Source: an uncultured Syntrophales bacterium
GTDB taxonomy: Bacteria > Desulfobacterota > Syntrophia > Syntrophales > JAAYKM01
Reading direction: 5' to 3'
DNA length: 32,000 nt
Assembly: GCA_964541005.1 (NCBI GenBank)
Contig: CAZIPU010000001.1
Span: 4,493 to 36,492 of the forward strand
Position 1 is the first letter of the stretch; each line of letters opens with the position of its first letter. Positions 991 through 32,000 of the stretch are shown piece after piece. A program made the translations under genes and the position numbers. The notes under the pieces were generated by a model that worked only from the letters and a program-made list of their open reading frames with translations, was not told where the DNA came from and did no database searches.

Positions 991-1019
991 AGTATAGAAA
1001 AAGGGCATTCCGGTGTCAA
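991..1019 (-). promoter_or_regulatory. Sigma70-like promoter for the radical SAM gene: TTGACA-N17-TATACT on the minus strand
   Basis: The minus strand reads TTGACA (1019-1014), a 17-nt spacer, then TATACT (996-991), about 65 nt upstream of ATG 925. The -35 sits inside the inverted repeat GGCATT-N8-AATGCC. Confidence 0.45.
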
Positions 1020-3740: not shown

Positions 3741-3754
3741 AATGAGGACGAGAT

Positions 3755-4631: not shown

Positions 4632-4660
4632 TTGACATCCGCAGCGGCTTTTCCTATACT
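4632..4660 (+). promoter_or_regulatory. Near-consensus sigma70-like promoter (TTGACA-N17-TATACT) for the long operon starting at 4831
   Basis: TTGACA 4632-4637, a 17-nt spacer, TATACT 4655-4660. This implies a 5' leader of about 165 nt before ATG 4831. Confidence 0.5.
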
Positions 4661-12517: not shown

Positions 12518-13992
12518 AGCAAATCCGCGAGCCCGGCAGGATACTGATTATCGGCTCCGGTGCCGGCGGCCTGACGGCGGGAATTATCCTGGCTAAACTG
12601 GGCTATCCTGTGACGATCGCGGAAAAAAACATCCAGGCGGGCGGGTTGATGCACAATTATCGCCGCCGGGGCTTCGATTGTCCCGTTGGGGTGCATTACC
12701 TGGGATCCCTGGATTCCGGTCAGCCCCTCCGGCGATTATGGGATTATCTGGGCGTAACGGAAAAGATTCCCCTGGAACGCATGGGAACGTCAGGCCCCAT
12801 CGATCGCTATGTCTTTGACGATTTTCATTTCGATTTACCCGAGGGGGTGCCGGCTTTTGAAGAAAACCTGATGCAGGCCTTCCCGGAAGAGCACAAGCAG
12901 ATTGCGTCGGTTATGGCAGAGCTTACGGAGGTCAGTGGCAGCTTTGCGCGCCTCGACATGCTTTTGTCTCCGGAAGGGGTACCCGTTTCCGTGGAGAGTT
13001 TTTCTCCCATGGGGGAACATCTTGACCGCCTGGGTTGTTCGGAACGTCTGAAAAGCGTCCTGGGTGTTCCTTCCATGCTTATCGGGCTGTCCCTTCAGGA
13101 ATGTCCCCTTTTTTACTATTACCTGACCCTCTCCTCTTACCTTCTGTCATCCTGGCGGCTGAGGGACAACAGTTCCCGCATGGCGGAGGCATTTGCCGGT
13201 CGGTTCCGTGCATTGGGAGGACAACTGGTACTTGGAGACGGCGTCAAACGCATTCTTGCCGAATCGGGCAGGATAAGGGGCGTGCGGCTTCAATCCGGCC
13301 GCGAGATCGATGCGGATACCATTATTGCCGCCGTTCATCCCCAGGCCGTCACGGCCATGCTGCCCGAAGGCGTGCTGCGGCCTGACCAGGCGGAACGGAT
13401 CGCTCGGCTCGAAAACACCAAGGGTCTGTTTGTCGTAACGCTGTCCGTTGCAGACAGTGTTAATGAAGCTCTTCCCTATAATATTTACCGGCTCCACCCC
13501 GAAGCGGATGGCTCCCTTGCAAAGGGATCGTTTCACCAGATACGAAAGGGCAATCAAGCCGGGACGAATCTCCTGACCATGATGGCCACCAGCAGCATCA
13601 AGGAATGGCAGCCTTGGGAACAGACCGTGTCGGGCCGGCGTGGGGGCGACTATAAATGCGAAAAGAGAAACAGAGCGGAGGCGTTCATCACCGAAGCGAC
13701 GGCACTTTTCGGCCCCCTGAAAGGAAAGGGAATCGTTGATATTTATACCCCCCTGACGATCCGGGATTGGGTCGGAAGCCCCGGCGGATCGGCCTACGGG
13801 ATCAGGCGTTCGTCGTCACAGCTGATGAGGACGGCTTTTCTGAACCGGCCGGCCGTCAAGGGGCTTTTTTTTGCGGGACAGAATATTCTCGCCCCCGGAA
13901 TCATGGGAACGACCCTGGGGTCATTCCAGGTCATCAAACGGATTATCGGCCAGGAACATTTCGGTCGAACAGTACTGGAGGGGCTGCGTTGA
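12511..13992 (+). CDS. FAD-dependent oxidoreductase of the phytoene desaturase (CrtI/CrtD-like) family
   Basis: Track ORF 12349..13992. I place the start at ATG 12511 (MLKQIREPGRILIIGSGAGGLTAGIILAKLGYPVTIAEKN, a GxGxxG dinucleotide fold ending in E). C-terminal GLFFAGQNILAPGIMGTTLGS is typical of this family. ATGCTGA overlaps the KS-CLF stop. Confidence 0.8.
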   Translation: MLKQIREPGRILIIGSGAGGLTAGIILAKLGYPVTIAEKNIQAGGLMHNYRRRGFDCPVGVHYLGSLDSGQPLRRLWDYLGVTEKIPLERMGTSGPIDRYVFDDFHFDLPEGVPAFEENLMQAFPEEHKQIASVMAELTEVSGSFARLDMLLSPEGVPVSVESFSPMGEHLDRLGCSERLKSVLGVPSMLIGLSLQECPLFYYYLTLSSYLLSSWRLRDNSSRMAEAFAGRFRALGGQLVLGDGVKRILAESGRIRGVRLQSGREIDADTIIAAVHPQAVTAMLPEGVLRPDQAERIARLENTKGLFVVTLSVADSVNEALPYNIYRLHPEADGSLAKGSFHQIRKGNQAGTNLLTMMATSSIKEWQPWEQTVSGRRGGDYKCEKRNRAEAFITEATALFGPLKGKGIVDIYTPLTIRDWVGSPGGSAYGIRRSSSQLMRTAFLNRPAVKGLFFAGQNILAPGIMGTTLGSFQVIKRIIGQEHFGRTVLEGLR

Positions 13993-15338
13993 TCATATTG
14001 CTGATTTCCACCAATACCATGACGGATCCCTATCCGACTTATCCCATCGGTCTGGACTATGTCGCCCATGCCATTCCCCCCCACCACAAAGTCGTGATGG
14101 TCGACCTGAACGACCCGGGAGAGAATAAAACACTCGCAGGGATCCTTACTGAAGAGCACCCCGACCTTATTGGCCTGTCGATCCGGAATATCGACAATAC
14201 GGAAGCCGTGAATGTGAAAAGCTTCTCCGAAGGCATGTGCGATCTGATACGCCTCATTCGACGCCATACCAGGGCAAAGATCGTTCTTGGGGGAAGCGGG
14301 TTCACAATCCTGCCCGGTGAATGGATGCGCCTTCTTGACGCGGATTATGGCGTCATCGGGGAAGGGGAACGCCTGCCCCTTTTGCTGGATGCCCTGGAAA
14401 GAAACGAGACGACTTCCGGTCTGCCGGGCATCATGACGAAAGAGGATCCCGTGATTTTCCCGGAACCCTGGACGGGCACATTCCATCGCGGGCCTTTTTT
14501 CTCCCGGGCCTATACGTCTTTTTACCTGAAAAAGGGGGGCATGCTCAACCTGCAGACCAAACGGGGTTGCCCCTTCAAATGTATCTATTGTACTTACCCT
14601 CATATCGAGGGGAAAACGTTCCGTTTTGTACCTCCCGATGAAGCGGCTGAAACAGCGCGGATGCTCCAGGACGCCGGCGCGCGCTACCTCTACATGACCG
14701 ATTCGACCTTCAACGGAAATTACGAGCATAGCCTGGCCGTTGCCGAAGCTTTCAAGAAAGCGGGCGTTTCCATCCCCTGGGGGGGCTTCTTCACCCCGAC
14801 CCGACCCCCTGCCGATTATTACCGTATCCTTGCGGAGGCGGGACTCCGGCATGTGGAATTCGGAACGGAGGCCCTGAATAATCCCATGCTGGCGGCATAC
14901 CGGAAACCGTTCAATCTCGAAGATGTCCGGATGGCCCATCGCTTTGCTCTGGAGGCGGGTCTTCATATCGCCCATTACCTCATGCTGGGCGGCCCCGGAG
15001 AAAGCGAGGCCACCCTTCAGGAAACACTTGAAAATTCTAATGATCTGGTGAAGGCTGTCTACTTCATGTTCAGCGGAATACGGATCTATCCGCACACGGA
15101 CCTGTACGACCTGGCCTTGCGGGAGGAACAGATCCAACCGGGCACGAATTTACTGAAGCCCACGTTTTACTGGTCCCCGGGCCTAAACCGACGGAGAGCC
15201 ATGACGCTGATCACGAATCATGCGGAGGGACGAAGCAACTGGCTTGTCGGCTCCGGGGCGGAAAAAACATCCAGGATTCTTTCACGGCTTTACGCCCGGG
15301 GTCACGTGGGCCCCCTTTGGGAGCACATGATCCGATGA
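13989..15338 (+). CDS. B12-binding-domain radical SAM enzyme (lipid-cluster type)
   Basis: Track ORF 13767..15338. I place the start at TTG 13989 (TTGA overlap with the desaturase stop), giving (M)IILLISTNTMTDPYPTYPIGLDYVAHAI. Further motifs: IVLGGSGFT and LNLQTKRGCPFKCIYCTYP (CxxxCxxC, about nt 14568-14591). Confidence 0.85.
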   Translation: MIILLISTNTMTDPYPTYPIGLDYVAHAIPPHHKVVMVDLNDPGENKTLAGILTEEHPDLIGLSIRNIDNTEAVNVKSFSEGMCDLIRLIRRHTRAKIVLGGSGFTILPGEWMRLLDADYGVIGEGERLPLLLDALERNETTSGLPGIMTKEDPVIFPEPWTGTFHRGPFFSRAYTSFYLKKGGMLNLQTKRGCPFKCIYCTYPHIEGKTFRFVPPDEAAETARMLQDAGARYLYMTDSTFNGNYEHSLAVAEAFKKAGVSIPWGGFFTPTRPPADYYRILAEAGLRHVEFGTEALNNPMLAAYRKPFNLEDVRMAHRFALEAGLHIAHYLMLGGPGESEATLQETLENSNDLVKAVYFMFSGIRIYPHTDLYDLALREEQIQPGTNLLKPTFYWSPGLNRRRAMTLITNHAEGRSNWLVGSGAEKTSRILSRLYARGHVGPLWEHMIR

Positions 15339-16159
15339 CCGGCCCGGAAACGGAAGGAGGGGGACTGTCCCCCGCCGGCATATCCGGTTTGATCGCCCTT
15401 TCCCTGGCATCGCTGCTGGCGGTCTTTCATCCGCCGTCGGCGGTCATCCCCCTGGCGTCTTACGTTCTGATCTGCCTGGGAGCACCGTTTTTCCCGACCG
15501 TCGGTTTCTTTCTGCCCGTTTACAGCCGGGGACGCACCGGAAGATCCGTGGTTGCGATTACTTTCGATGACGGACCGGATCCGGAAACCACCCCTTTACT
15601 TCTGGAACTTCTTTGCCGATACCATGTAAAGGCAACCTTCTTCGTTACGGGAACGAGGGTGAAAGCGCATGGCGATCTCATTTCGGCCATCCTCGGGGAA
15701 GGCCACGATATCGGGAATCATTCCTTCAGTCATGATGTTTTCCTGATGTTCCGGACGATGAAGCGTCTTGCCGGGGAGGTGGCGATGACCCAGAGAAGCC
15801 TGCGGGGTTTCGGGTTCGTTCCCCTGGCCTTCAGGCCCCCGGTGGGAATTACAAACCCGAAGCTCGGACCTGTTTTACGCCGGCAAGGTCTTTTCTGCGT
15901 CAATTTTTCCTGCCGGGCTTACGACGGCGGCAACCGGTTCGTCCGGGGGATGGCCGGCCGAATTCTGAAGAAAGTCAGGTCCGATGACATCATTGTATTG
16001 CATGATGTGCCACCGGGGAATGGGGTAACCGTACAGATCTGGCTTGAAGAAGTGGCATCCGTCCTTTCCGGGTTGGAAAAGAGGGGCCTGAGCGTTATTC
16101 CCCTGGCGGAACTCCTCGGGAGACCGATCATCGTCAGGGCAACGGGTGTTGGTCAATGA
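15335..16159 (+). CDS. Membrane-anchored polysaccharide deacetylase (NodB homology domain, CE4)
   Basis: ATG 15335 overlaps the radical SAM stop (ATGA). Two N-terminal TM helices, then VAITFDDGPDPETT (TFDDG) and GHDIGNHSFSHD (H-S-x-x-H). Confidence 0.85.
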   Translation: MTGPETEGGGLSPAGISGLIALSLASLLAVFHPPSAVIPLASYVLICLGAPFFPTVGFFLPVYSRGRTGRSVVAITFDDGPDPETTPLLLELLCRYHVKATFFVTGTRVKAHGDLISAILGEGHDIGNHSFSHDVFLMFRTMKRLAGEVAMTQRSLRGFGFVPLAFRPPVGITNPKLGPVLRRQGLFCVNFSCRAYDGGNRFVRGMAGRILKKVRSDDIIVLHDVPPGNGVTVQIWLEEVASVLSGLEKRGLSVIPLAELLGRPIIVRATGVGQ

Positions 16160-16229
16160 TCTTCGGAAGTTATAATGAGCAAAAAACTGTTGATACAGGG
16201 GGGGATCAATGGTATTTGGTTCCGGTTAA

Positions 16230-16670
16230 ATGGGCGCTCCTAAACAAGGATATTCTGCTTTGTGCGCCATGGATATGATGGAACAATGGCATCGCATATA
16301 TCATGAAACCGATCCGTCGGGTTCCGGAGTGATGATCAGGGCCTTGGCGCAAAGCGGATCCCCCTGGTTTTCCGGTCATTTCCCCGGAGAGCCGATTCTG
16401 CCGGGCATTGCCATCCTGTCCATGGTTAAGGAGGCCGTCCTGGCGGAGGAATCCCGCAAGGGAAGGCGTATTCGGATTCATGGAATCAACAGGGTTCGCT
16501 TCCGTCTGCCCGTCCGACCGGATGACCTGCTGACCCTGGCGTTTTCCATGTCCGGACAGGAAGGGAAGCCCGTTTATTCATTCAAGGTATCCCTGGACGG
16601 GAAAACGGTGTGCAACGGGATGATCGCCGCCGGGCTTCTGCCGGAGACGCTTCCGGCTTCCGATGGCTGA
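16230..16670 (+). CDS. FabZ/FabA-like hot-dog 3-hydroxyacyl-ACP dehydratase (APE ApeI/ApeP-like)
   Basis: 146 aa. WFSGHFPGEPILPGIAILSMVKEA is the FabZ catalytic His motif. The start is uncertain (ATG 16230 or ATG about 16270), and neither has a clear Shine-Dalgarno. Confidence 0.75.
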   Translation: MGAPKQGYSALCAMDMMEQWHRIYHETDPSGSGVMIRALAQSGSPWFSGHFPGEPILPGIAILSMVKEAVLAEESRKGRRIRIHGINRVRFRLPVRPDDLLTLAFSMSGQEGKPVYSFKVSLDGKTVCNGMIAAGLLPETLPASDG

Positions 16671-16755
16671 AAGGTGGAATAAAAGGACTTGAATGACCGG
16701 AAGGTCTTTTATAGATTCAAAGTGCAGTCATTTTAACGAGGAGGAATGGATACCC

Positions 16756-17016
16756 GTGAGTGCGGAAAACAAGGCCCTGATCATTCGCGTCGCCGAGATC
16801 GTCATTACCGAATTGAAGTTGCAGGACATTACGCCCGATACATTTGATCCCGATCTCGATCTTGTGGATGAACTGGGGGTGGACAGCATGGATCTGGCTA
16901 CGGTGGTCCTGGTTCTGCAGGACGAATATGGGATCACCATCGACGAGGACGACTATCCGAAATTGAGAAACATCCGCCTGATCGCAGAATATGTCGAACA
17001 GAAGCAGCGGGCGTAA
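16756..17016 (+). CDS. Acyl carrier protein (ACP-3)
   Basis: Track ORF 16693..17016. LVDELGVDSMDLATVVLVLQDEYG. I favour GTG 16756 (GAGGAGGA about 10 nt upstream), giving an 86-aa ACP. ATG 16693 is possible. Confidence 0.8.
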   Translation: MSAENKALIIRVAEIVITELKLQDITPDTFDPDLDLVDELGVDSMDLATVVLVLQDEYGITIDEDDYPKLRNIRLIAEYVEQKQRA

Positions 17017-18127
17017 TGATAAAACATTCGTGAGTACGACAGACGCCATAACCCTCCCAGGCGAGGAGAACGGGAAAAGAAAATGGAAGTTTTCAGAACT
17101 TCTGGCCGATCCGGAGGTGTCTTCACGATGGGAGAAGGTGCGTAAGTATTTCTTTCTCCGGGAATCGACGTATGACATGACGAATCGCTGCAACATTCGC
17201 TGCGACGGCTGTTATTACTATGAAGGGGAAAAACAGTTTGCCGTCGACAGCCGTGATCCCGAAGCGTGGCGCAAACTGATGCAGGACGAGAAATTCAGGG
17301 GGATCACCTATGTCGTTCTGGCCGGCGCGGAGCCTTCCCTGGTTCCGGAACTGCTTGAGGTCTGCTTCCGGGAAATGCCTCTGGGCAGCATCGCCACCAA
17401 CGGTTACGTCCGGATTCCCGAGAGCGTAGGTTACCGGATCCATATTTCCGTCTGGGGTAATGATGAAACGAGTGCCCGCGTCCGGGGTGCCAAAAACCTC
17501 CTGAAACGGCAGATCGAGAATTACGCCGGCGATTCCCGGGCCGTTTTTGTCTACACCTTCACCCGGGATAACATTGACGAAGTTTACGAGGTCATGGAAA
17601 CGATCGCTTCCCGGGATTGCCGGATGACCTTCAACATGTTTTCCTCCCCCGTAGGCTATACGGGAGGCCTTCGGCACGATACGGCATCGCTGCTCCGGGC
17701 CAGGCAAACGATGATGGATATCCTGACAAGGTACCCGGAGAACATCCTGTTTTCGCCTTATAACGTGGTGGCCCATACGGAGCCATATGGTCTCCATACC
17801 CTCTATGGGTGTTCTTACCCGAGGATGAACGGTTCCACCGATATCGGCCTGGGCCGATCCTTCCGCCAGTACCGGTCGGATCTTTCCTGGGATCGAAGCG
17901 TGGCCTGCTGCGTACCCGATACGGACTGCGAAGACTGCCGGCACTATGCTTCCGGCAGTGCCGTGGTGACGGCCCGCCTCTACCGCCATGTGACCGATCC
18001 GGAAACATTCCGTTCCTGGCTGGACTATGTGGATACCTATCTGGCCGTCTGGGTAATGGGTTACGATAAGGGAGAAAACCTCTGCCGTACATTGATCGAA
18101 CCGCCCGGGAAACCGGACTCAATTTGA
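16991..18127 (+). CDS. Radical SAM enzyme, no B12 domain, C-terminal Cys-rich motif (paralog A)
   Basis: 378 aa. STYDMTNRCNIRCDGCYYY (CxxxCxxC, about nt 17189-17212), VVLAGAEPSL, C-terminal VACCVPDTDCEDCRHY. The start could be ATG 16991 (overlapping ACP-3) or GTG 17030. Confidence 0.85.
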   Translation: MSNRSSGRNDKTFVSTTDAITLPGEENGKRKWKFSELLADPEVSSRWEKVRKYFFLRESTYDMTNRCNIRCDGCYYYEGEKQFAVDSRDPEAWRKLMQDEKFRGITYVVLAGAEPSLVPELLEVCFREMPLGSIATNGYVRIPESVGYRIHISVWGNDETSARVRGAKNLLKRQIENYAGDSRAVFVYTFTRDNIDEVYEVMETIASRDCRMTFNMFSSPVGYTGGLRHDTASLLRARQTMMDILTRYPENILFSPYNVVAHTEPYGLHTLYGCSYPRMNGSTDIGLGRSFRQYRSDLSWDRSVACCVPDTDCEDCRHYASGSAVVTARLYRHVTDPETFRSWLDYVDTYLAVWVMGYDKGENLCRTLIEPPGKPDSI

Positions 18128-18185
18128 AAAACAGGGTTGTCGTTTCCATTCTGGGGGACGACGGGGGGAAAACGAGAAAAATTAT

Positions 18186-19184
18186 ATGAAAACGGTCAGT
18201 TCCTTACTTGATGAAGCCTGGCATGAGCGCTACCGGAAAATCGCCAGCCTGAATATCCGCAGTTCCATCTACGATGTGACCAACCGCTGTAACCTGCGCT
18301 GCAAGGGGTGTTTCTTCTTTTCCTCCAATGAGCACGAAGCCGCTCAGGAGGAGATGGATATAAACAAGTGGTATGACTTTATCGGCCGGGAGAAGGCGCG
18401 GGGAGTCAACCTGGCCATCCTGATCGGCGGTGAACCGACCCTGTACCTGGACCGGGTTGAAGCCTTTTATCGGCAGCTTCCCACGTACTGCGCCACCAAC
18501 GGGCAGATCAAAATCCCCCGCGACCGCTTCCCTGACATGATGGTGGGCATCTCCCTGTGGGGGGACGAGGAAGACGAGAAAACCCTCCGGGGGAAAGACA
18601 CGTTCGCCGTTTCCCGGCGACATTACGAAGGTGACCCCCACACCTACTATCTTTACACGATCACGGCAAAACAGGTCGGACGCATCGAATCGGTCGTCCG
18701 TAAAATAGCCGATGCGGGTCTTAAGGTCCATTTCCAGCTTCTGACGAACGATGAACAGGTGGACGGATTCTCCTGGAGCGAGGACAAGCTGCGCGACATT
18801 CGAAGTGAAATGGATGAAATGCTTGACCGCTATCCCCGGACGGTTGTTTCCTGCCGGTATTATCACGAAATCATCACCACGGGGAAAATGATGGGACGGC
18901 CTTTCGGCTGGAACGAGTGCCCCTCCGTGACGGAACAACTGGATACGCGGAATCCGCAACCCAAAAGACTCATCCGGTTCATCCGCTGGGCTTCCGATCT
19001 GAAGACCATGCACCGGTGCTGCACCTCCGAAACCCGGGACTGTTCGACCTGCAAGGACGGGGCGGCCCACATGAGCTGGGTCATGGTCAACAAGAGGGAT
19101 CATCTGCGTTCGACCCAAGACATCCAGAACTGGATCGAAGTCTACGAAATGTTTGCCAAACTGTACCGTTTTATCCCCTGGTAG
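18186..19184 (+). CDS. Radical SAM enzyme, no B12 domain, C-terminal Cys-rich motif (paralog B)
   Basis: 332 aa. SIYDVTNRCNLRCKGCFFF (about nt 18288-18311), ILIGGEPTL, C-terminal HRCCTSETRDCSTCKDG. Alignable by eye with the preceding gene along its length. Confidence 0.85.
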   Translation: MKTVSSLLDEAWHERYRKIASLNIRSSIYDVTNRCNLRCKGCFFFSSNEHEAAQEEMDINKWYDFIGREKARGVNLAILIGGEPTLYLDRVEAFYRQLPTYCATNGQIKIPRDRFPDMMVGISLWGDEEDEKTLRGKDTFAVSRRHYEGDPHTYYLYTITAKQVGRIESVVRKIADAGLKVHFQLLTNDEQVDGFSWSEDKLRDIRSEMDEMLDRYPRTVVSCRYYHEIITTGKMMGRPFGWNECPSVTEQLDTRNPQPKRLIRFIRWASDLKTMHRCCTSETRDCSTCKDGAAHMSWVMVNKRDHLRSTQDIQNWIEVYEMFAKLYRFIPW

Positions 19185-19193
19185 CCTCCCCTC

Positions 19194-20468
19194 ATGAGCG
19201 CTGCGGCAAGGATGGGAACGGGGCGAAAAAGGCCTGTCATACTCGGCTACGATGCCGTATCTCCCCTGGGGTTGGATCTGGCAGAGCAGTGGGAACGTGC
19301 ATCGAGGGGCGAAAGCGGAATAGGCCCCCTGACCCGTTTTCCCCTCCGGGACGGATTCCCGGTGAGAATCGCCGGGGAGGTGAAGGAGATCGACACGGGA
19401 GCCTATCCCTTTTTAGCCGCCCGGGATATGGTGCAGTGGACGTCGCCTCTGTTTAAGTACGCCATGCTGGTGGTTAACCGGGCCCTGGCGAAAAGCGGGA
19501 TCGAGATTACCCCCGCCATATCGCCCCGGGTGGCCATTACCTTCAGTTCCGCCATCGGCGGCCTTGACGCGGTTTTGAAGGCGGACCGGCTTCTTGTTTC
19601 CGGAGGGAAACTGCCCCATCCCTTCACCAATCCGAATTCCTGCATCAACATGGTGGGGGGAAAGGTATCGATCATGACCGGGGCGACGGGACCGATTACG
19701 TCAACCATCACCGCCTGCGCCACGGGGAGCACTTCCATGATCATGGGGGGGCTTCTGATCGACCAGGGGATGGCCGATGTCGTCATTTGCGGCGCCGTGG
19801 ATTTCCCCCTCGTCGAGCCCATCGTGGGAGGATTCGCCACGATGAACGGGGCCTACCGGCCGAAAGAAGGCCAGCCGGAGGAAGCGCCGGAAAGGGCCAG
19901 CCGGCCCTTTTCGCAGAACAGGCGCGGGTTTGTGGTCTCCGAGGGAGCAGGGTGTGTCATCATTGCCGGACGTGATTTCGCCGCGTCCCATGGTTTACAG
20001 TTTGACCTGGAAATGGCAGGATGGGCCATGACCTCCGACGCCCATCATTTTGTGGCGCCGAATCTCCAGACGGTTAGGCGCTGCATCTCCGAAAGTCTTG
20101 CCGACGCGGGTCTTCAGGTGTCGGAGATCAATGCGATCAACGCCCACGGCACGTCGACCAAAATCGGCGACAAAATCGAATGGGAGGCCCTGCGTGATGT
20201 TTTTGGCAGCCGCATTCCTCCCGTATCGGCCAACAAGTCCCAGACGGGGCATGCCATGGGGGCTTCTTCCGCCATTGAGTTAATTCTGGCCATGGAAGGA
20301 ATGAAGCGGGAGAGAGTTCTGCCGACGATCAATTACCGGCCGGACCCGGAGATACCCCTCGACTGCGTTCCCGAAGGGGCGCGGAAGCTGGAGCAGGAAT
20401 ACGTTCTGAAAAACGCGTTCGGATTTGGCGGCTGCAACGCCTGCCTGGTGTTGCGCAGGACCGGTTGA
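19194..20468 (+). CDS. Beta-ketoacyl-ACP synthase, KAS I/II type (KS-2)
   Basis: 424 aa. ITACATGSTSMIMG (Cys), INAHGTSTKIGD (His), NKSQTGHAMGASSAIE (Lys/His), NAFGFGGCNACLVL. Confidence 0.9.
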   Translation: MSAAARMGTGRKRPVILGYDAVSPLGLDLAEQWERASRGESGIGPLTRFPLRDGFPVRIAGEVKEIDTGAYPFLAARDMVQWTSPLFKYAMLVVNRALAKSGIEITPAISPRVAITFSSAIGGLDAVLKADRLLVSGGKLPHPFTNPNSCINMVGGKVSIMTGATGPITSTITACATGSTSMIMGGLLIDQGMADVVICGAVDFPLVEPIVGGFATMNGAYRPKEGQPEEAPERASRPFSQNRRGFVVSEGAGCVIIAGRDFAASHGLQFDLEMAGWAMTSDAHHFVAPNLQTVRRCISESLADAGLQVSEINAINAHGTSTKIGDKIEWEALRDVFGSRIPPVSANKSQTGHAMGASSAIELILAMEGMKRERVLPTINYRPDPEIPLDCVPEGARKLEQEYVLKNAFGFGGCNACLVLRRTG

Positions 20469-20502
20469 CCCATCATCGGAAAAGGGATCATACAATCGAA
20501 CT

Positions 20503-21768
20503 ATGAAGGCACCCAAGAACAGACGGGTTTTCGTTATCGGCTACGGCGCGGCCACGCCCCTGGGAAGGACTTTTTCCACGACCTGGGAGCGTGCGGTGAA
20601 AGCGGAGGCCGGTTTCCGCACGGTTACCCGCTGCCATGTCAAAACCCTGAGCCACGTCGTGGGTGAAATACCGGATTGGGATCCGCTGCACCTGGGCCTG
20701 GCCGATGAAAAGGAAGTCTATAACTGGAATGCGGCCTTTGTCATTCTGACGATGGCGGTCTGCCGGGAAGCGCTGGAACATGCGGGATTGATCATGGACA
20801 ACGGCGTCGCCCCGAAAACCGCCTGCCTGATCGGCTCCGCCATCAACGGCACCGACGCCTTCCGGTGCGCCGTGGAAAACCTGCGGGACAAGGGGCCCCT
20901 CAAGGTCAGTCCCTACCTGCTCCCCAACATCTGCGCCAATCTGCCTGCCGGTAAAGCCGGCATGGAACTGGGATTCACGGGACCTGTTTTTTCACCCCAG
21001 GGGGCGTGCGCATCCGCGAACTACGCCCTGGCCCTGGGCGCCCGGATGATCCGCGACGGCGACTGCGACTTTGCCCTTGCCGGGGGAGTCGATATGCCGA
21101 TCATTCCGGAGATCATTCACGGTTTCGCCAATATGAACGCGACCATCAAGATCCACCCCTACGACCGGGCCCATGACGATCCTTCACAGGCCTCCCGGCC
21201 CTTCAGCGTGGACCGGAAGGGCTTTGTCGTGGCCGAGGGAGCAGGGATTCTGGTACTGGCCGCCGAAGAGACATTGAAAACCCACGGGCTGCGACCCAGA
21301 GCCGAGGTCATGGGGATCGGCTGGAGTTCCGACGCACACCATTTCACACGGCCGAACAAGGTTACGGTCATCCGCGCCATCAGGAACGCGATCGATGACG
21401 CGGGTCTTTCCGTAGAAGATATCGGTTACATCAATGCCCACGGAACTTCCACCATGGCCGGTGACAGCACGGAGATCGATTGTCTGCAAACCGTTTTCGG
21501 TGACCGCCTGGAAAAGATCCCGATTTCATCGAACAAGTCTCAGATCGGCCATTCCCTGGGTGCCGCCGCGGCGGTTGAAAACGCCCTGACCATTGAGGGC
21601 ATGCAAAGGGGAATCATCCTGCCGACGGTCAATTACCTGGCTGACCCCGCTTTCAACGGTCTGGATTTTGTTCCGAACGAAGCCCGCCGGCAACATCATG
21701 AAATCGCCCTGTCGAATGCCTTCGGCTTCGGCGGAACCAACTGCTGCGTCGTTTTCCGGGGAGTCTAG
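20503..21768 (+). CDS. Beta-ketoacyl-ACP synthase, KAS I/II type (KS-3)
   Basis: Track ORF 20425..21768. I place the start at ATG 20503 (MKAPKNRRVFVIGYGAATPLG). PQGACASANYALALG (Cys), INAHGTSTMAGD (His), NKSQIGHSLGAAAAVE (His), NAFGFGGTNCCVVF. Confidence 0.9.
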   Translation: MKAPKNRRVFVIGYGAATPLGRTFSTTWERAVKAEAGFRTVTRCHVKTLSHVVGEIPDWDPLHLGLADEKEVYNWNAAFVILTMAVCREALEHAGLIMDNGVAPKTACLIGSAINGTDAFRCAVENLRDKGPLKVSPYLLPNICANLPAGKAGMELGFTGPVFSPQGACASANYALALGARMIRDGDCDFALAGGVDMPIIPEIIHGFANMNATIKIHPYDRAHDDPSQASRPFSVDRKGFVVAEGAGILVLAAEETLKTHGLRPRAEVMGIGWSSDAHHFTRPNKVTVIRAIRNAIDDAGLSVEDIGYINAHGTSTMAGDSTEIDCLQTVFGDRLEKIPISSNKSQIGHSLGAAAAVENALTIEGMQRGIILPTVNYLADPAFNGLDFVPNEARRQHHEIALSNAFGFGGTNCCVVFRGV

Positions 21769-26924: not shown

Positions 26925-27069
26925 ATATTTCCCGGGAATGAACCCGTTAGCGACAAACACGGACTTTGTGTCAAATCAAAACGGTTATGCTTTACACAAA
27001 CTCTCCCGTCTTAATCATCTCTTGAATCCGATCTGCACACAGGACTCATTTCACCTGCCAATTTTCTTT

Positions 27070-27098
27070 TTGACATGCAGGACGGCCCTTGCTATATC
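27070..27098 (+). promoter_or_regulatory. Candidate internal sigma70-like promoter (TTGACA-N17-TATATC) upstream of the DarA/DarB-like genes
   Basis: TTGACA 27070-27075, a 17-nt spacer, TATATC 27093-27098, in a visibly AT-richer 250-bp gap after the PlsY-like gene. Confidence 0.4.
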
Positions 27099-27177
27099 CT
27101 TCGCGCTTGAAGACAGTGCAACGGTCGAAAACGATTCTCATCTGCAGAAAATTTAAGGGAAGGATAGATCATCACCT

Positions 27178-28056
27178 TTGGAAAAGAATATCCTGGTCAT
27201 CTATTACAGCCAGACGGGACAACTGAAGCAGATTGTGGATTCTCTGCTTTCGCCCCTTGCCGCCAATTCCATGTTTTCCATCGATTACCTGGAAATCCGG
27301 CCGGCGGTGGCCTACCCTTTTCCCTGGATCCGGAACGCTTTTCTGGATGTTTTTCCCGAATCCGTTCTGGAAGCGCCGATCGGCTTGAAGCCGGTCGAGG
27401 CTAAATATCGCGGCGCGTACGATTTGATCATCCTGGCCTTTCAGCCCTGGTACCTGTCGCCGTCTCTGCCCATATCGGCATTTCTGAAAAGTCCGGAAGC
27501 GGCCGGGATTCTGAAAGGACAACGGATCGTAACCGTCATCGGGGCGCGAAACATGTGGATTAAGTCCCTTGAATGCGTCAAGGAAAGGATAGAATTCCTC
27601 GGGGGAACCCTCGCCGGCAACATCGCCTTGACGGACCGGGCACTTAATCTGGTCAGCGTCGTAACGATTGTTTACTGGATGTTCCGGGGAAAGAAGGACC
27701 GCTGCCTGGGTGTCTTTCCGAAACCGGGGGTATCCGATGCGGATATCCATGCCGCCGCCCGCTTCGGGAAGGTTTTAGAAAAAGCCCTGATCAATGACCG
27801 GACGGATCGGGTCGGGGAAGAATTGGCCAAGCTCGGCGCGGCGGAGATAAATGATTCGTTGGCGAGACTGGAGAATCGTGCTAAGAGGATCTTTAAAATG
27901 TGGGCGAATTTGATCACAAAGCATTCTAAGATCAGGCGGTTATTGCTGAATCTTTTTTTTATCGAGCTGATTTTGGGCCTTGTCATCTTGTCCCCCTTAT
28001 ATTCTCTTTTCGGTATCATACTAAAACCTTTCAGGATAAAAACGGCACGGGCATAG
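27178..28056 (+). CDS. darA: DarA-like protein (flavodoxin-like N-domain; dialkylresorcinol pathway partner of DarB)
   Basis: 292 aa, TTG start. N-terminus (M)EKNILVIYYSQTGQLKQIVDSL is flavodoxin-fold-like and matches what I recall of DarA N-termini. C-terminal hydrophobic helix LLLNLFFIELILGLVILSPLY. The stop abuts the DarB-like ATG (TAGATG). The assignment rests on memory of the family plus synteny. Confidence 0.55.
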   Translation: MEKNILVIYYSQTGQLKQIVDSLLSPLAANSMFSIDYLEIRPAVAYPFPWIRNAFLDVFPESVLEAPIGLKPVEAKYRGAYDLIILAFQPWYLSPSLPISAFLKSPEAAGILKGQRIVTVIGARNMWIKSLECVKERIEFLGGTLAGNIALTDRALNLVSVVTIVYWMFRGKKDRCLGVFPKPGVSDADIHAAARFGKVLEKALINDRTDRVGEELAKLGAAEINDSLARLENRAKRIFKMWANLITKHSKIRRLLLNLFFIELILGLVILSPLYSLFGIILKPFRIKTARA

Positions 28057-29199
28057 ATGGAGAATCAGGTCTATATTACGAAATTAGCGAAGTTCTTACC
28101 GAACGAACCGGTTTCCAATGAGGGGATGGAGGACATCCTGGGCAGGATAAACGGCCGGCCATCCAAAATCCGAACCCTCGTTTTGAAAAGCAACGGCATC
28201 CGAACCCGTTACTACGCCATCGATGACCGGGGGCGTTTCACCCACACCAATGCGGAACTGACGGCCAATGCCATCCGTTCCCTGATGGATTCGTCTCTGA
28301 AGATCTCAGATGTGGAACTTCTGTGCTGCGGCACCTCCATTCCCGACCAGATTCTACCCTCCCATGCAGCCATGGTTCAGGGCTGCCTCGGTGCACCGCC
28401 GTTCGAAATCGTTTCCACGGCCGGCGCCTGCTGTTGCGGGATTCATGCCCTCAAGTACGGCATGCTTTCGATCATGGGCGGCAATTCTTCCAACGCGGTC
28501 TGCGCCGCATCCGAACTGGTTTCGCCGTTGCTGATGTCCCGCCATTACGAGAATGAACTGGCCGGCCTCCAGCGGTTGAAACGGCGGCCCATCATCGCAT
28601 TTGAAAAGGATTTCCTGCGGTGGATGCTCTCCGATGGCGCCGGCGCCGTCCTGCTGGAGAATAAACCGAACCGCCGGGATGGCCTGTCTTTAAGGATCGA
28701 TTCGATCGATACCTGTTCCTTCGCCGGAGAAGTCGCCGCCTGCATGTACGCCGGAAGCAGCCGGAACGGAGGAGGGGAACTGGTCAGCTGGAAAAATCAT
28801 TCCCCCGAGGAATGGCTGGAGAATTCCACCTTTGCCATCAAGCAGGATGTCAAGCTGCTGGATAAACACATCGTCAAGCTCGGCACGAGGAAGCTGGCCG
28901 AAACCCTGAAAAAACGGGGCGTCAGTTCCGGAGACATCTCTTTCCTGCTGCCCCATATTTCATCCGAGCATTTCCGCAAACCCCTGGACCGCGAAATGAA
29001 TGAACAGGGGATTCCGATTCCCCAGGAGCGGTGGTTCACCAATCTTGCCACGGTGGGCAACATCGGCAGCGCCTCGATCTACCTGATGATGGAGGAACTG
29101 TTCCACTCCGGCAAACTCGACCGGGACATGAAGATTCTGGCCCTCGTGCCGGAAAGTTCCCGGTTCAGTTACGCCTTCATGCTGATGACGGTCTGCTGA
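28057..29199 (+). CDS. darB: KAS III-like condensing enzyme of the DarB type (head-to-head condensing ketosynthase)
   Basis: 380 aa. VYITKLAKFLPNEPVSNEGMEDILGRINGRPS is a DarB-like N-terminus as I recall it. Cys-His-Asn contexts: TAGACCCGIHALKYG, LPHISSEHF, VGNIGSASIYL. It differs clearly from the FabH-like gene at 2733. Confidence 0.65.
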   Translation: MENQVYITKLAKFLPNEPVSNEGMEDILGRINGRPSKIRTLVLKSNGIRTRYYAIDDRGRFTHTNAELTANAIRSLMDSSLKISDVELLCCGTSIPDQILPSHAAMVQGCLGAPPFEIVSTAGACCCGIHALKYGMLSIMGGNSSNAVCAASELVSPLLMSRHYENELAGLQRLKRRPIIAFEKDFLRWMLSDGAGAVLLENKPNRRDGLSLRIDSIDTCSFAGEVAACMYAGSSRNGGGELVSWKNHSPEEWLENSTFAIKQDVKLLDKHIVKLGTRKLAETLKKRGVSSGDISFLLPHISSEHFRKPLDREMNEQGIPIPQERWFTNLATVGNIGSASIYLMMEELFHSGKLDRDMKILALVPESSRFSYAFMLMTVC

Positions 29200-29200
29200 G

Positions 29201-29629
29201 ATGAAACGGGAACAGGTACCCCAGGACGACGACCGCCTCATGGAGGGGCGCACCCGCGACCTCTGCTATGCCGTTGACGAAAACGGCGAGTATGTCCAGG
29301 TGTTGAGCACGGGGTGGGAGCCCAAGAATGCCGCTCTCATGCAGGCATGGGAAGAGATCGGCGAGCAGGCGAAGGCAATTTATTCCCAGGTGCAGGCCGG
29401 ACAAGTCAGTCCGATCGCCTTTTTTATGGCCCAGTGCATGTTCGATATCAAGCTCCTGTCGGATTACACGGGTTTGCCGAAAAGAAAGGTCAAGGCGCAT
29501 CTGGAACCCGAGCAGTTCAGGCGACTCGACGCAGAGACCCTGAAAAGCTATGCCGAGGCGTTCAACATCACGGTCGAAGACCTGGTGAACTGCACCAATA
29601 CGGCCGATCCTTTTTCCGAGGAGAAATAA
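29201..29629 (+). CDS. Hypothetical protein (possible C-terminal helix-turn-helix)
   Basis: 142 aa, starting 1 nt after the DarB-like stop. Codon usage is like its neighbours. The segment IKLLSDYTGLPKRKVKAHLEPEQF looks HTH-like, but no motif is recognised with confidence. Confidence 0.5.
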   Translation: MKREQVPQDDDRLMEGRTRDLCYAVDENGEYVQVLSTGWEPKNAALMQAWEEIGEQAKAIYSQVQAGQVSPIAFFMAQCMFDIKLLSDYTGLPKRKVKAHLEPEQFRRLDAETLKSYAEAFNITVEDLVNCTNTADPFSEEK

Positions 29630-29648: not shown

Positions 29649-30650
29649 ATGATCGTTGATTTCAAACACAGGCAGGCCGCACACTGTGAAAACGGGGTAA
29701 CGTCGAATATATTCAGGTATTACGGTGTCGATCTATCCGAGGCCATGGCATTCGGAATCGGCTCGGGCCTCTTTTTCATTTACATGCCCTTTCTCAAGTA
29801 CAACGGGATTCCCGTCAGCTCGTTTCGACCCCTGCCCGGCATGATTTTCAAGCGGGCCACGCGCCTCCTCGGCATCAGGATTTACCGGAAGGCGTTCCGG
29901 GACAAGACGGCGTCCATGAAGGCTCTCGACGAGGCCCTCGACCGCCACATCCCGGTGGGGCTTCAGGTCGGCGTTTTTCACCTGGCCTACTTTCCCCGGC
30001 CCTACCGTTTCCATTTCAACGCCCACAATCTTGTGGTTCTGGGCAGGGAAAACGGCCGTTACGTTATCAGCGATCCCGTCATGGAAAGCCTGGAGTCTTT
30101 GAGCTATGACGAGTTGTTGCGGGTCCGCTGGGCCCGGGGCCTTTTCCAGCCGAAGGGGAAAATGTACTACCCTGTGAAGATCCCCGGGAAGATCGATCTG
30201 GCATCCGCCATTGTCAAGGGCATCCGGAAGAATTGCCGGGAAATGCTGAGCATTCCCATCCCATTTCTGGGTGTCCGGGGAATCCGCTACCTGGCCCGGG
30301 ACATCCGGCGGTGGCCGGCGAAACTGGGCGATAAAAAGGCCGCCCTGCACCTGGGGCAGTTCATCCGGATGCAGGAGGAAATCGGGACCGGCGGCGCCGG
30401 ATTCCGGTTCATTTATGCCGCCTTCCTCCAGGAGGCATCGAAAATATTGAACAAACCCCGGCTCCAGGAGCTGTCGGAGAACATGACCGACTGCGGCGAC
30501 CGATGGCGGGAATTTGCCGTCATGGCGGCCCGGATCATCAAGAACCGCAGCGGCGAGGGAGAGTCCTACGAGGCCATGTCCGCCATTCTTCTGGAAATCG
30601 CGGACCGGGAACAGGCCATCTTTAAGGAATTAAGGAAAGCCGTTACATGA
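29649..30650 (+). CDS. BtrH-N/DUF4872-like protein (putative ACP-dependent acyl/aminoacyl transferase or cysteine hydrolase fold)
   Basis: 333 aa. FKHRQAAHCENGVTSNIFRYYGVDLSEAMAFGIGSGLFFIY matches the BtrH N-terminal domain pattern (conserved HCE...G...SE.M.FG.GSG) as I recall it. Confidence 0.6.
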   Translation: MIVDFKHRQAAHCENGVTSNIFRYYGVDLSEAMAFGIGSGLFFIYMPFLKYNGIPVSSFRPLPGMIFKRATRLLGIRIYRKAFRDKTASMKALDEALDRHIPVGLQVGVFHLAYFPRPYRFHFNAHNLVVLGRENGRYVISDPVMESLESLSYDELLRVRWARGLFQPKGKMYYPVKIPGKIDLASAIVKGIRKNCREMLSIPIPFLGVRGIRYLARDIRRWPAKLGDKKAALHLGQFIRMQEEIGTGGAGFRFIYAAFLQEASKILNKPRLQELSENMTDCGDRWREFAVMAARIIKNRSGEGESYEAMSAILLEIADREQAIFKELRKAVT

Positions 30651-31399
30651 CAACACCGCCCGTCATAGAGGTTTCCGGACTGAGGAAGGTTTATAAAGGG
30701 TCGGCCAAGCCCGCCGTCGATGACCTCTCTTTCGCCGTTTCCGAAGGGGATATTTTCGGGCTTCTGGGTCCGAACGGTGCGGGAAAGTCAACGACCCTCA
30801 TGACGCTTTGCGGGCTCTTAGGCATCGATGGGGGACGTATCCGGGTTTTCGGCCTCGACGCCCGTCTGAAAGGGTCTGAAATCCGCAGCCGCGTCGGCGT
30901 GGCCACCCAGGAAATCGCCCTGTTCCCTTCCCTGACGGCCCGCGAGAACCTCCTCTATTTCGGCCGGATGTACGGGCTCGAAGGATCGGAAATCCGGGAG
31001 CGGATGCAGAATCTCCTGGCGGGGTTCGGCCTGTCGGACAATGCGGACAGGCGGGTTGCTCATTTTTCGGGCGGGATGAAAAGGCGCCTCAACCTCATCG
31101 CGGCCCTGCTCAACCGGCCGCGGCTGCTCTTTCTCGATGAACCGACGTCGGGGGTGGACGTGCAGTCCCGCAACATGATTTTAGCCTACATGCGCCGGAT
31201 GAAAACAAAGGGGGTAACGATTGTCTATTCATCCCATCTCCTGGAAGAGGCGGAGAAAATCTGCGACCGGTTCGCCATTATCGACGAAGGCCGGCTGGTG
31301 GCTGCAGGAACCCTGGAAGAGATGCTCGGACAAAACGGGGGCTGTGATAACCTGGAACAGTTGTTTCTCCACCTGACCGGCAGAGGAATCCGCGATTGA
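30647..31399 (+). CDS. ABC transporter ATP-binding protein (ABC-2/DrrA-like)
   Basis: 250 aa. Walker A GPNGAGKSTT, signature FSGGMKRRL, Walker B LLFLDEPTSGVD, H-loop SSHLLEE. ATGA overlaps the previous stop. Confidence 0.95.
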   Translation: MTTPPVIEVSGLRKVYKGSAKPAVDDLSFAVSEGDIFGLLGPNGAGKSTTLMTLCGLLGIDGGRIRVFGLDARLKGSEIRSRVGVATQEIALFPSLTARENLLYFGRMYGLEGSEIRERMQNLLAGFGLSDNADRRVAHFSGGMKRRLNLIAALLNRPRLLFLDEPTSGVDVQSRNMILAYMRRMKTKGVTIVYSSHLLEEAEKICDRFAIIDEGRLVAAGTLEEMLGQNGGCDNLEQLFLHLTGRGIRD

Positions 31400-32000
31400 A
31401 GATTCTGGCAACCATGAAAAAAGAACTCCTGCTGCTCATCCGCGATCCGGGCGGCATGGCACTTCTGTTTCTCATGCCCCTGGCCCTGGTGGTCGTGATG
31501 GCCCTTGTCCAGGACAACACCTTCCGTGAGTTCCAGGAGACGAGGCTGGACGTTCTTTTCCTCGATCAGGACAGGGGCGAGCTGGGTTCAAGTATTGAGG
31601 AGGCCCTCCAGTCCGGGGGCAACATCCGCCTCATCACAAAAGAGGCCGGGAAGGACCTCACGGTGGATCAGGCCGGAAGCCTGGTGCGAAAAGGCCGCTA
31701 CAAGGCGGCGGTGATCATTCCGGCCGGGGCCGGGGAAGCCCTGCGGAAGAAAACGAAACAAACCGCGCAGGCGTTTCTGGCCTCCTATGGTTTCGCCGAC
31801 GGCGAGCAGGATGGGAAGGAGTCGCCAAGAGTGGAATTACAGATCCTCTTCGATCCCGTCATCAAGGCCAACTACCGCCAGAGCCTGGCGGGAGGGCTGG
31901 AGAGAATCCTGACAGGTCTCCAGGCGGACTGGTTCATGGCGGAAATACAGTCGCGGTTCGGCGGGATAACCAAGTTGGAAGGAAAGAAAATCGACCTGGG
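31396..32000 (+). CDS. ABC-2-type transporter permease, N-terminal part (runs off the window)
   Basis: Not in the track because it has no stop. My translation from TTG 31396 (TTGA overlap), or from ATG 31414, reads (M)KILATMKKELLLLIRDPGGMALLFLMPLALVVVMALV... It has one TM helix followed by a long soluble loop, as in YhhJ/ABC-2 permeases, and is open to nt 31998. Confidence 0.75.
   Translation, partial: MKILATMKKELLLLIRDPGGMALLFLMPLALVVVMALVQDNTFREFQETRLDVLFLDQDRGELGSSIEEALQSGGNIRLITKEAGKDLTVDQAGSLVRKGRYKAAVIIPAGAGEALRKKTKQTAQAFLASYGFADGEQDGKESPRVELQILFDPVIKANYRQSLAGGLERILTGLQADWFMAEIQSRFGGITKLEGKKIDL

Follow-up and report, generated by a model that had tools for sequence, protein, structure and literature searches.

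Flexirubin-type aryl-polyene/dialkylresorcinol esters were long held to be markers of Bacteroidota and were later found in a few Betaproteobacteria. [quoted passage not shown] The arcuflavin cluster of Azoarcus sp. BH72 carries its dar genes in the order darA-B-D-E-F-I-C-J-K, and the pathway is split over separate loci (PMC3949708). A partnership of a ketosynthase and an aromatase is also found in StlD/StlC of Photorhabdus, DarABC of Pseudomonas and EcDarAB of Eikenella, systems of two to three genes that yield a free stilbene or dialkylresorcinols. Free dialkylresorcinols are known as end products in these three genera (PMC6836626; PMC13748660). Another relevant group is that of the "ladderane-like" FAS II clusters of Kuenenia stuttgartiensis and Desulfotalea psychrophila, in which neither DarAB nor an MIO lyase appears in the accessible part of the description (Rattray, 2009; PMC2649909). 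The product of the ladderane-like clusters is still unknown (PMC13459092).

The DNA analysed here is a stretch of 32,000 nucleotides (the window) of the 44.5-kb contig C1, which belongs to a metagenome-assembled genome (MAG) of an uncultured Syntrophales bacterium. It probably holds one part of a split flexirubin/arcuflavin-like aryl-polyene/dialkylresorcinol pathway, embedded in a catalogued ladderane-like radical-SAM lipid cluster. The cluster is most likely of an ordinary flexirubin-like type, with a DarAB pair and a dar cassette that are already known, in an unusual, oxygen-avoiding bacterium. That uncultured, strictly anaerobic syntrophs possess a complete dar cassette and starter genes to match widens the known range of these genes.

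The preliminary description placed a dialkylresorcinol module on two genes, one for a 292-aa protein and one for a KAS III-like enzyme. ORFs of 292 and 380 amino acids are found at these places (Table 1), and the TAGATG through which the flavodoxin-like gene was said to abut the KAS III-like gene is read at 28054-28059 (ggcaTAGATGgag). The 292-aa ORF has a TTG start, and its N-terminus aligns with those of homologues of 286-292 aa. The two genes are not a two-gene module; they open a conserved dar operon of nine genes, namely darA, darB, the DarG-family gene, DarH, the ABC ATPase, the ABC-2 permease, ACP, KS and the CLF-like KS. This order is the same in ten Syntrophales and two Cytophaga loci, some of which end at contig edges. 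The DarG-family protein scores 147.6 bits with NF053536 (cut-off 70), and DarH scores 470.1 bits with NF053550 (cut-off 300) and contains the Pfam domains BtrH_N and DUF4872. A profile search also gave a match of PF13723 to a 420-aa protein of the cassette.

Table 1. Positions of the dar operon and of the elements associated with it (window coordinates unless stated otherwise).
Feature	Position	Strand	Basis or remark
Second copy of the promoter motif, ahead of the GT2 gene with which the main + strand operon begins	4632..4660	+	
AT-richer intergenic gap, 253 bp, from the PlsY-like gene to darA	26925..27177	.	ORF ends, GC
Sigma-70-like promoter element TTGACA-N17-TATATC, upstream of darA	27070..27098	+	Sequence, conservation
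darA, DarA family, putative FMN-dependent aromatase; flavodoxin-like N-terminal domain and C-terminal long helices	27178..28056	+	
darB, StlD/DarB-family KAS III with Cys125-His300-Asn335	28057..29199	+	
DarG-family small protein (darD of Azoarcus sp. BH72)	29201..29629	+	NF053536; gene-order position as in PMC3949708
DarH, BtrH-related acyltransferase (darE of Azoarcus), candidate esterifying enzyme	29649..30650	+	
ABC transporter ATPase of the dar cassette	30647..31399	+	PF00005, 115 bits; kept in all relatives
ABC-2 permease	31396..32000, continuing beyond the window to contig position 37171	+	PF12698/PF01061
ACP, KS (PRK09185 type) and CLF-like KS, 3' of the permease, outside the window	L005 1114-3754		

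The 292-aa protein had been proposed to be DarA. It has no match at E<=0.001 in Pfam and NCBIfam, libraries from which a dedicated DarA model may be absent, and raising the limit to E 10 gives noise only (flavodoxin 10.9 bits, Pex2 15 bits). A sequence search of the PDB gave nothing useful. Since these profile and PDB sequence searches are uninformative, the identity as DarA is drawn from the names of homologues and the predicted fold, both of which agree with the proposal. Of its 4378 homologues, some bear the NCBI name "dialkylresorcinol condensing enzyme DarA"; those so named share 61% identity in Syntrophaceae and 45% in Flavobacterium (E 2e-77). In the AF2 model (pLDDT 89.1, pTM 0.87), the N-terminal ~170 residues match the folds of FMN flavoprotein, flavodoxin and WrbA in Foldseek, in which 3edo is matched with a TMt of 0.75 (E 2e-6).

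The darB product scores 544.6 bits with the StlD/DarB-family model NF005293 (cut-off 450) and 82.5 bits with the best FabH model. With NF053539, an exception-level, DarB-specific model, it scores 543.2 bits, 7 short of the cut-off of 550. It is matched to Photorhabdus StlD (PDB 5gk0; E 4.9e-115), a member of the same KAS III family with the same catalytic triad, and Cys125, His300 and Asn335 align with the StlD motifs GAC, LPH and GN(T)GSAS. The proposal of a DarB-type KAS III with an intact Cys-His-Asn, rather than an ordinary FabH, is thus upheld. DarB is 52-57% identical to Bacteroidota proteins, and DarA is 45% identical. Judged from these sequences, positions 27178-29199 encode a true DarA/DarB pair, predicted to make a dialkylresorcinol lipid head.

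An AT-richer gap of about 250 bp had been seen before darA, and its GC content is indeed 0.44-0.45 against 0.55-0.67 in the flanks. An Rfam search of the window gave no RNA family. Within the gap, TTGACA at 27070-27075 is separated by N17 from TATATC at 27093-27098. A simple promoter scanner does not list this element because the last base of its -10 hexamer is not T; it is retained here because it is conserved across relatives. Seven of nine Syntrophales relatives keep TTGACAT-N16-TATA ahead of darA, in flanks that are otherwise unalignable, and this supports the separate promoter that had been suggested for the dar genes. The pattern is matched twice in the window, where 0.00 matches are expected, and TTGACA-N17-TATA occurs 39 times genome-wide against 2.7 expected from composition.

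The dar cassette has the same genes in the same order as that of Azoarcus sp. BH72, and the Azoarcus pathway is likewise split. The polyene part is also alike, with a MipA-type outer-membrane protein, a polysaccharide deacetylase, a methyltransferase, an exporter, LolA and an AMP-ligase. On the other hand, Azoarcus primes with 3-hydroxybenzoate via a XanB2-type chorismatase, whereas the candidate starter enzyme here is an MIO ammonia-lyase, as in flexirubin. The Azoarcus cassette, unlike the present one, has a toxin-antitoxin insert, and Azoarcus lacks the radical-SAM/CrtI-like block. Azoarcus is an aerobe/microaerobe, whereas the host here belongs to a strictly anaerobic lineage, the Syntrophales. 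With the flexirubin clusters of Bacteroidota, the pathway shares the starter logic of an ammonia-lyase and an AMP-ligase, an FlxB-like ketoreductase and a LolA2-like protein, and the cassettes of two Cytophaga loci (L016 and L017) are syntenic with the Syntrophales one. The flexirubin-specific NCBIfam equivalogs are all missed, however: FlxA (NF053541) with 297 bits for a cut-off of 700 (for the lyase of contig L045), FlxB with 299.8 for 340 and LolA2_flexi with 107.5 for 125 (the latter two for proteins of the congener G063), and flexirubin_DarG (NF053545) with 155.2 for 170. Compared with the Bacteroidota clusters, the present one has additional radical-SAM, CrtI-like and paired FabF genes, and its host is one of the Syntrophales. 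The Stl and minimal Dar systems differ further, in that nine genes including an acyltransferase and a transporter lie here inside a polyene cluster.

Because it has its own promoter and transporter, the dar operon could work alone. It would then make free dialkylresorcinols or cyclohexanediones, serving as a signal, an antioxidant or a membrane lipid and exported via its own ABC-2 system, beside a polyene and radical-SAM cluster to whose products they are not covalently linked. The conservation of the promoter, the possession of ACP, KS and CLF by the cassette itself, and the precedents in Pseudomonas, Photorhabdus and Eikenella are in keeping with this arrangement, as is the gene just upstream of the cassette, which differs among relatives (PlsY-like, LpxL-like or other). 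This alternative is nevertheless unlikely. In Azoarcus, ester pigments are made with the same nine-gene cassette, BtrH-like acyltransferase included, and the cassette is also present in Cytophaga, a member of the phylum known for flexirubins. It always adjoins cluster genes wherever the extent of the contig permits a view. Besides, 13 of the 14 DarA-positive Syntrophales genomes have the lyase, the 14th being this MAG, and 13 of the 14 have the TIGR04072 radical-SAM enzyme.

In the split flexirubin-like pathway, which we prefer, the aryl-starter genes would lie at a second locus. None was found in the window or in the whole of C1 when PF00221, PF04345 and AMP-binding genes were searched for, and the 9 AMP-binding genes of the genome all lie off C1. 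The claim of a cluster without aryl-starter genes therefore stands for the window and for C1. It does not hold for the MAG, in which two small contigs, C133 and C223, carry starter-type genes, namely an AMP-ligase, an ApeP-like dehydratase, an FlxB-like ketoreductase and a LolA-like gene. On C223, the first 34 codons of a B12-radical-SAM gene stand at the contig end, which falls about 1.2 kb short of the position of the lyase gene. Logan contigs matching C223 at 99.6% identity along its full 3364 bases (and C133 at 98.7-99.0%) run on from there into genes for an MIO ammonia-lyase of 517 aa, a thioesterase and a FakA/DegV fusion. Each of the seven further genomes sampled from the genus has the MIO ammonia-lyase. 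In two of them it lies on a cluster contig: G063 has it 14.7 kb upstream of the GT2 gene, and in G027 it follows the last dar gene at a distance of about 3.5 kb. In this MAG, contamination is 6.9%, C133 and C223 are assigned by binning and by their synteny with congeners, and their locus is unplaced relative to C1 and not joined to the cluster in this strain. When the proteins of the two genes at the 5' end of C1 were looked up for exact matches, no further contig turned up. Starter genes just outside the window had been named as what would make this a conventional flexirubin-type cluster; in essence they exist, although not literally there, as the locus is a second and unplaced one.

The contigs L044 and L045 come from the metagenomes ERR14947313 and ERR14947317. 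The putative lyase on L045, a near-identical contig, is of the MIO type and carries an ASG motif, and it is below every curated cut-off, including that of hutH (434 bits for 539). Histidine catabolism was considered as its role and rejected because no urocanase gene (hutU) was found in five genomes of the genus. For the AMP-ligase, the top-scoring substrate-specific NCBIfam model is 4-coumarate-CoA ligase (4_coum_CoA_lig, 98.6 bits for the L045 protein against a cut-off of 334.7).

From the missing starter genes, the preliminary description had suggested a polyene starting from a non-aryl unit. A cluster truly without an aryl starter would prime the polyene or acyl part with such a unit, for instance through a FabH-like KAS III and an ACP, and esterify it to the dialkylresorcinol. 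At the head of the cluster there is in fact a FabH scoring above the TIGR00747 cut-off (298.5 > 292.1), with a weak ACP-like ORF behind it (the two at 2733-4033), and C1 is devoid of the three kinds of starter gene. However, the FabH orthologue of G063 is located elsewhere, and starter-type genes occur at the second locus, split off by the assembly, with the lyase following on the near-identical contigs and present throughout the sampled congeners. The non-aryl start is undercut by these genes and is quite improbable. When a gene is missing from a window of a MAG, small contigs and congeners need checking before new chemistry is proposed.

The dar pair had also been described as embedded in an APE-like cluster, and the gene content agrees. 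The window has KS/CLF, ACPs, dehydratases, a thioesterase, LpxL/PlsC-type acyltransferases, GT2 and an MMPL exporter, and the second locus has an ApeP-like dehydratase, LolA and an AMP-binding gene; the APE set, including ApeI/ApeP-type dehydratases, LolA and an adenylating starter enzyme, is complete only if both loci are counted.

By homology to described enzymes, the split pathway would operate as follows. ACP, KS and the CLF-like KS of the cassette would supply medium-chain acyl thioesters, and DarB would join a beta-ketoacyl and a 2-enoyl thioester head-to-head, by Michael addition and Claisen condensation, into a carboxy-cyclohexanedione, which the flavodoxin-fold DarA would aromatise with decarboxylation to a 2,5-dialkylresorcinol (PMC6836626; PMC13748660). 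For an aryl-primed polyene acid, the second locus would give the MIO ammonia-lyase, AMP-ligase, ketoreductase, dehydratase and LolA, and the window KS/CLF, ACPs, the thioesterase, acyltransferases and the MMPL exporter. DarH is the best candidate, by analogy with BtrH, for moving the ACP-bound acid onto a resorcinol hydroxyl, and the ester link is proposed on this ground. ABC-2, MMPL and LolA would then carry the lipid to the envelope.

Directly upstream of the dar genes, a block at 12349-21768 encodes a CrtI-like flavoenzyme, a TIGR04072 B12-radical-SAM enzyme (13767-15338; 391.5 bits, cut-off 360), a FabZ-like dehydratase, an ACP, two radical-SAM enzymes and two FabF paralogues. Its neighbourhood qualifies as ladderane-like, and the block resembles the clusters of K. 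stuttgartiensis and D. psychrophila (Rattray, 2009; PMC2649909). That the resorcinol or cyclohexanedione, or its alkyl chains, are the substrate of the B12-radical-SAM, paired radical-SAM and CrtI-like enzymes, giving a new modified resorcinol lipid instead of a flexirubin-type ester, is very improbable: darAB lies 14-19 kb from TIGR04072 in the four genomes that have both on one contig, and the two co-occur as stated above, but TIGR04072 is far commoner than DarA among the 151 Syntrophales genomes (63 against 14), so that the block works without dialkylresorcinols in most genomes, and it tracks the lyase much more closely, being present in 49 of the 54 lyase-positive genomes.

For the flexirubin-like pathway of Syntrophales, it may tentatively be suggested that it is merged with the ladderane-like block, the radical enzymes of which would tailor the polyene or resorcinol chains. 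If so, oxygen-independent tailoring by radical enzymes would yield a new class of envelope lipid. Because TIGR04072 and the lyase co-occur so often and are adjacent in two genomes, the non-anammox ladderane-like clusters as a whole might then be read as aryl-primed pigment pathways. The unexplained ladderane-like clusters of Desulfobacterota gain a handle in this way, as those of Syntrophales accompany a putative aromatic ammonia-lyase and, in four genera, a resorcinol operon.

The co-occurrence counts given here are based on DarA, not on DarB, for which 29 Syntrophales genomes are positive. The complete genomes G070 and G134 were considered as a case of unlinked dar and radical-SAM clusters and were dropped, both having DarA-less paralogues. 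In 15 of the 29 genomes, including G070, G134, G080, G015 and G111, the DarB matches are such DarA-less paralogues, with 49% identity where measured (G070 and G080).

The darA and darB reading frames abut at a TAG-ATG junction (28054-28059). The 380-aa darB product scored 544.6 bits against the NCBIfam model NF005293, "StlD/DarB family beta-ketosynthase" (cut-off 450), whereas the best FabH model gave only 82.5 bits; with the DarB-specific model NF053539 the protein reached 543.2 bits, slightly below the cut-off of 550. Its closest solved structure is that of Photorhabdus StlD (5gk0, E 4.9e-115), with the GAC, LPH and GN(x)GSAS motifs of which Cys125, His300 and Asn335 align. The 292-aa darA product matched no PDB sequence. 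It has 4378 homologues, part of which carry the NCBI name "dialkylresorcinol condensing enzyme DarA"; proteins so named are 61% identical to it in Syntrophaceae and 45% in Flavobacterium (E 2e-77). In an AlphaFold2 model (pLDDT 89.1, built from 34 homologues), residues ~1-170 align structurally with FMN-binding flavodoxin/WrbA-type proteins (3edo, TMt 0.75), and the C-terminus forms long helices. Reading frames, junction, predicted fold and StlD match confirm the preliminary description of a flavodoxin-like protein abutting a DarB-like KAS III with an intact Cys-His-Asn triad. Its assignment of the former to DarA is borne out by the named homologues and the fold, but not by a profile, no Pfam or NCBIfam model having matched.

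The dar module comprises nine genes, not two (Table). The terminal CLF-like KS gene (darK) is followed by the unrelated hypF/hypB. Azoarcus sp. BH72, an arcuflavin producer, has the same order, darA-darB-darD-darE-darF-darI-darC-darJ-darK (PMC3949708). This order is also kept in ten Syntrophales loci (protein identity 50-76%) and in two Cytophaga/Cytophagaceae loci (27-54%), some of the loci being cut by contig ends. The module is a further member of the already known dar cassette.

Table. Positions of the dar cassette, its upstream region and DarB paralogues of other Syntrophales genomes (G070, G080)
Feature	Position	Strand	Remarks
Gap before darA, 253 bp	26925-27177		GC 0.44-0.45 vs 0.55-0.67 on either side
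Putative promoter element TTGACA-N17-TATATC	TTGACA 27070-27075; TATATC 27093-27098		read from sequence
darA, 292 aa	27178-28056	+	TTG start
darB, 380 aa	28057-29199	+	KAS III, StlD/DarB family
DarG-family protein	29201-29629	+	NF053536, 147.6 > 70
DarH, BtrH-related acyltransferase	29649-30650	+	NF053550, 470.1 > 300
ABC ATPase	30647-31399	+	
ABC-2 permease	after ABC ATPase, running beyond window end		
ACP, PRK09185-type KS, 420-aa CLF-like KS	remainder of contig, beyond window		
DarB paralogue, DarA-less genome	G070:C1:3374038-3375168 (L028)		
DarB paralogue, DarA-less genome	G080:C7:84853-85986 (L020)		

The window covers positions 4493-36492 of a 44.5-kb contig (C1) in a MAG of 2.28 Mb (260 contigs, 88% complete, 6.9% contamination). 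Aryl-starter genes are truly absent from the window, as from this whole contig: the assembly yielded neither a MIO lyase (PF00221) nor a chorismate lyase (PF04345) gene, and its nine AMP-binding genes all lie on other contigs. A PF00221 gene is present, however, in the five other genomes of the genus that were searched first, and in each of the seven congeners within the order-level sample. In one congener (G063) the lyase shares a contig with the cluster, 14.7 kb upstream of the GT2 gene, in a sub-cluster encoding an AMP-ligase (463 aa), a FabZ-like dehydratase (DH), an FlxB-like ketoreductase (KR), a LolA2-like protein, a 238-aa protein, a B12-radical-SAM-like protein (426 aa), the lyase (517 aa) and a thioesterase; in another (G027), lyase and thioesterase lie ~3.5 kb past darK. 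With the G063 proteins as queries, the sub-cluster was found in the window's own MAG on two small contigs. C133 begins within the AMP-ligase gene, and C223 carries the other end of the ligase, DH, KR (82% identity to G063), LolA (72%), the 238-aa protein (53%) and, at its very edge, only the 34 N-terminal residues of the radical-SAM protein. An exact-protein match of the C223 reductase led to two public Logan contigs, L044 and L045, which bridge C223 and C133; at the DNA level they match the 3364-base C223 over its full length with 99.6% identity, and C133 with 98.7-99.0%. Beyond C223 they contain the remainder of the radical-SAM gene, a 517-aa Lyase_aromatic protein, a 4HBT thioesterase, a FakA/DegV fusion and an OmpA/TPR protein. 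Since these near-identical contigs run on past the end of C223 into the lyase gene, an assembly break ~1.2 kb short of that gene is the best explanation for its absence from the MAG. The lack of an aryl starter, the key novelty of the preliminary description, is an artefact that stems from the limits of the window and of the assembly. Exact-protein look-ups did not place this second locus relative to C1 in this strain. The break, within a gene, conceals ~5 kb including the lyase; the ends of C133 and C223 overlap by ~55 bases when aligned to L044, yet are unjoined in the MAG. The FakA/DegV fusion (L045:10452-12158, 568 aa) joins a Dak2/FakA-like kinase domain to a DegV fatty-acid-binding domain directly after the lyase and thioesterase genes.

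The lyase bears the ASG motif of MIO enzymes and falls below all curated cut-offs (hutH 434 < 539, FlxA 297 < 700, PAL 296 < 519). Five genomes of the genus were searched for a urocanase gene and none was found, so the lyase is unlikely to serve histidine catabolism; the genes adjoining the lyase are polyene-pathway genes. We infer the following chemistry for the pathway as a whole. From homology to characterized systems (PMC6836626, PMC13748660), DarB would condense a beta-ketoacyl thioester with a 2-enoyl thioester to a carboxy-cyclohexanedione, which DarA would decarboxylate and aromatise to a 2,5-dialkylresorcinol; the acyl chains are probably made or selected by the ACP, KS and CLF of the cassette. 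An activated aryl-acrylic acid would come from the second-locus lyase and AMP-ligase and be extended to a polyene acid by the KS/CLF enzymes of the window, the second-locus KR and ApeI/ApeP-like dehydratases. For transfer of the ACP-bound polyene acid onto the resorcinol, the best candidate is DarH, a BtrH-like protein, and the ester would be exported via ABC-2, MMPL and LolA proteins. Among the closest known pathways, that of arcuflavin shares the cassette, split loci, MipA and a deacetylase, and that of flexirubin shares the proposed lyase and ligase starter, although all specific equivalog cut-offs of the latter are missed by the genes here. The host belongs to a strict-anaerobe lineage, in which no earlier report of such a pathway was found; no paper in the library searched names both "Syntrophus" and "flexirubin".

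The AT-richer gap and both hexamers upstream of darA were found as previously described. A simple promoter scan did not list the element, because the scanner accepts only T at the final position of the -10 hexamer. Comparison among relatives gave firmer evidence. When ~230 bases 5' of darA were aligned from nine Syntrophales genomes with differing upstream neighbours (PlsY-like, LpxL-like, other), the sole conserved block was TTGACAT-N16-TATA(T/G), in 7/9 genomes. The pattern TTGACAT-N16-TATA occurs exactly twice in the window (0.00 expected from shuffles), 5' of darA and, at 4632-4660 (+), 5' of the GT2 gene that opens a long + strand operon; genome-wide, TTGACA-N17-TATA has 39 copies against 2.7 expected from base composition. 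These motifs make it very probable that the dar genes are served by a separate promoter of the ordinary sigma-70 type. C1 bears three of the 39 copies, the third, at about window position 991-1019 (-), facing a divergent B12-radical-SAM gene.

A sample of 151 Syntrophales genomes contained canonical DarA in 14 (4 genera, including 8/8 of the window's genus) and StlD/DarB-family matches in 29, 15 of them without a DarA match; DarA absence was confirmed one by one in five (G070, G134, G080, G015 and G111). The two aligned DarA-less paralogues (G070, G080) share 49% identity with DarB of the window; there the rest of the cassette is missing, and weak AMP-binding and B12-radical-SAM-like genes adjoin. 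TIGR04072, the B12-radical-SAM family marking "ladderane-like" clusters, scores above cut-off in 63 genomes and the lyase occurs in 54, of which 49 also have TIGR04072; the two genes are directly adjacent in two (G145:C13:104606-107532, G136:C114:1000-3926). This co-occurrence and adjacency suggests that TIGR04072 clusters in Syntrophales may be aryl-primed. Of the DarA-positive genomes, 13/14 have TIGR04072 and 13/14 the lyase, the exception for the latter being this MAG; as relatives are not independent, such counts describe rather than test an association. DarA/DarB and TIGR04072 lie 14-19 kb apart where they share a contig (this MAG, G078, G149, G088). Being four times commoner than darA, the ladderane-like block is independent of resorcinols.

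In the window this block sits upstream of the gap amid + strand APE-type genes for GT2, an MMPL exporter-methyltransferase fusion, LpxL-like acyltransferase, ACP, KS-CLF fusion, YbgC-type thioesterase, ACP, PRK09116-type KS, PlsC-like acyltransferase, a 510-aa protein (weak PPTase match) and a PlsY-like protein. It encodes a CrtI-like flavoenzyme, the TIGR04072 enzyme (391.5 > 360), polysaccharide deacetylase, FabZ/ApeI-like dehydratase, ACP, two radical-SAM enzymes and two FabF paralogues. The description of such a block in Kuenenia and Desulfotalea dates from 2009 (PMC2649909), its product is still unknown (PMC13459092), and surveys list "ladderane" clusters in Desulfobacterota with no product given (PMC9902471). 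The cluster also contains a FabH gene (2733-3740; TIGR00747, 298.5 > 292.1), the G063 orthologue of which (C31:419-1402, L037; 77% identity) lies ~13 kb past darK and not 5' of GT2; cluster borders have therefore been rearranged within the genus. Just 5' of the window, a gene for a MipA (MltA-interacting) outer-membrane protein (L004:3094-3933, -) adjoins the divergent B12-radical-SAM gene, and arcC of the Azoarcus arcuflavin cluster is of the same type.
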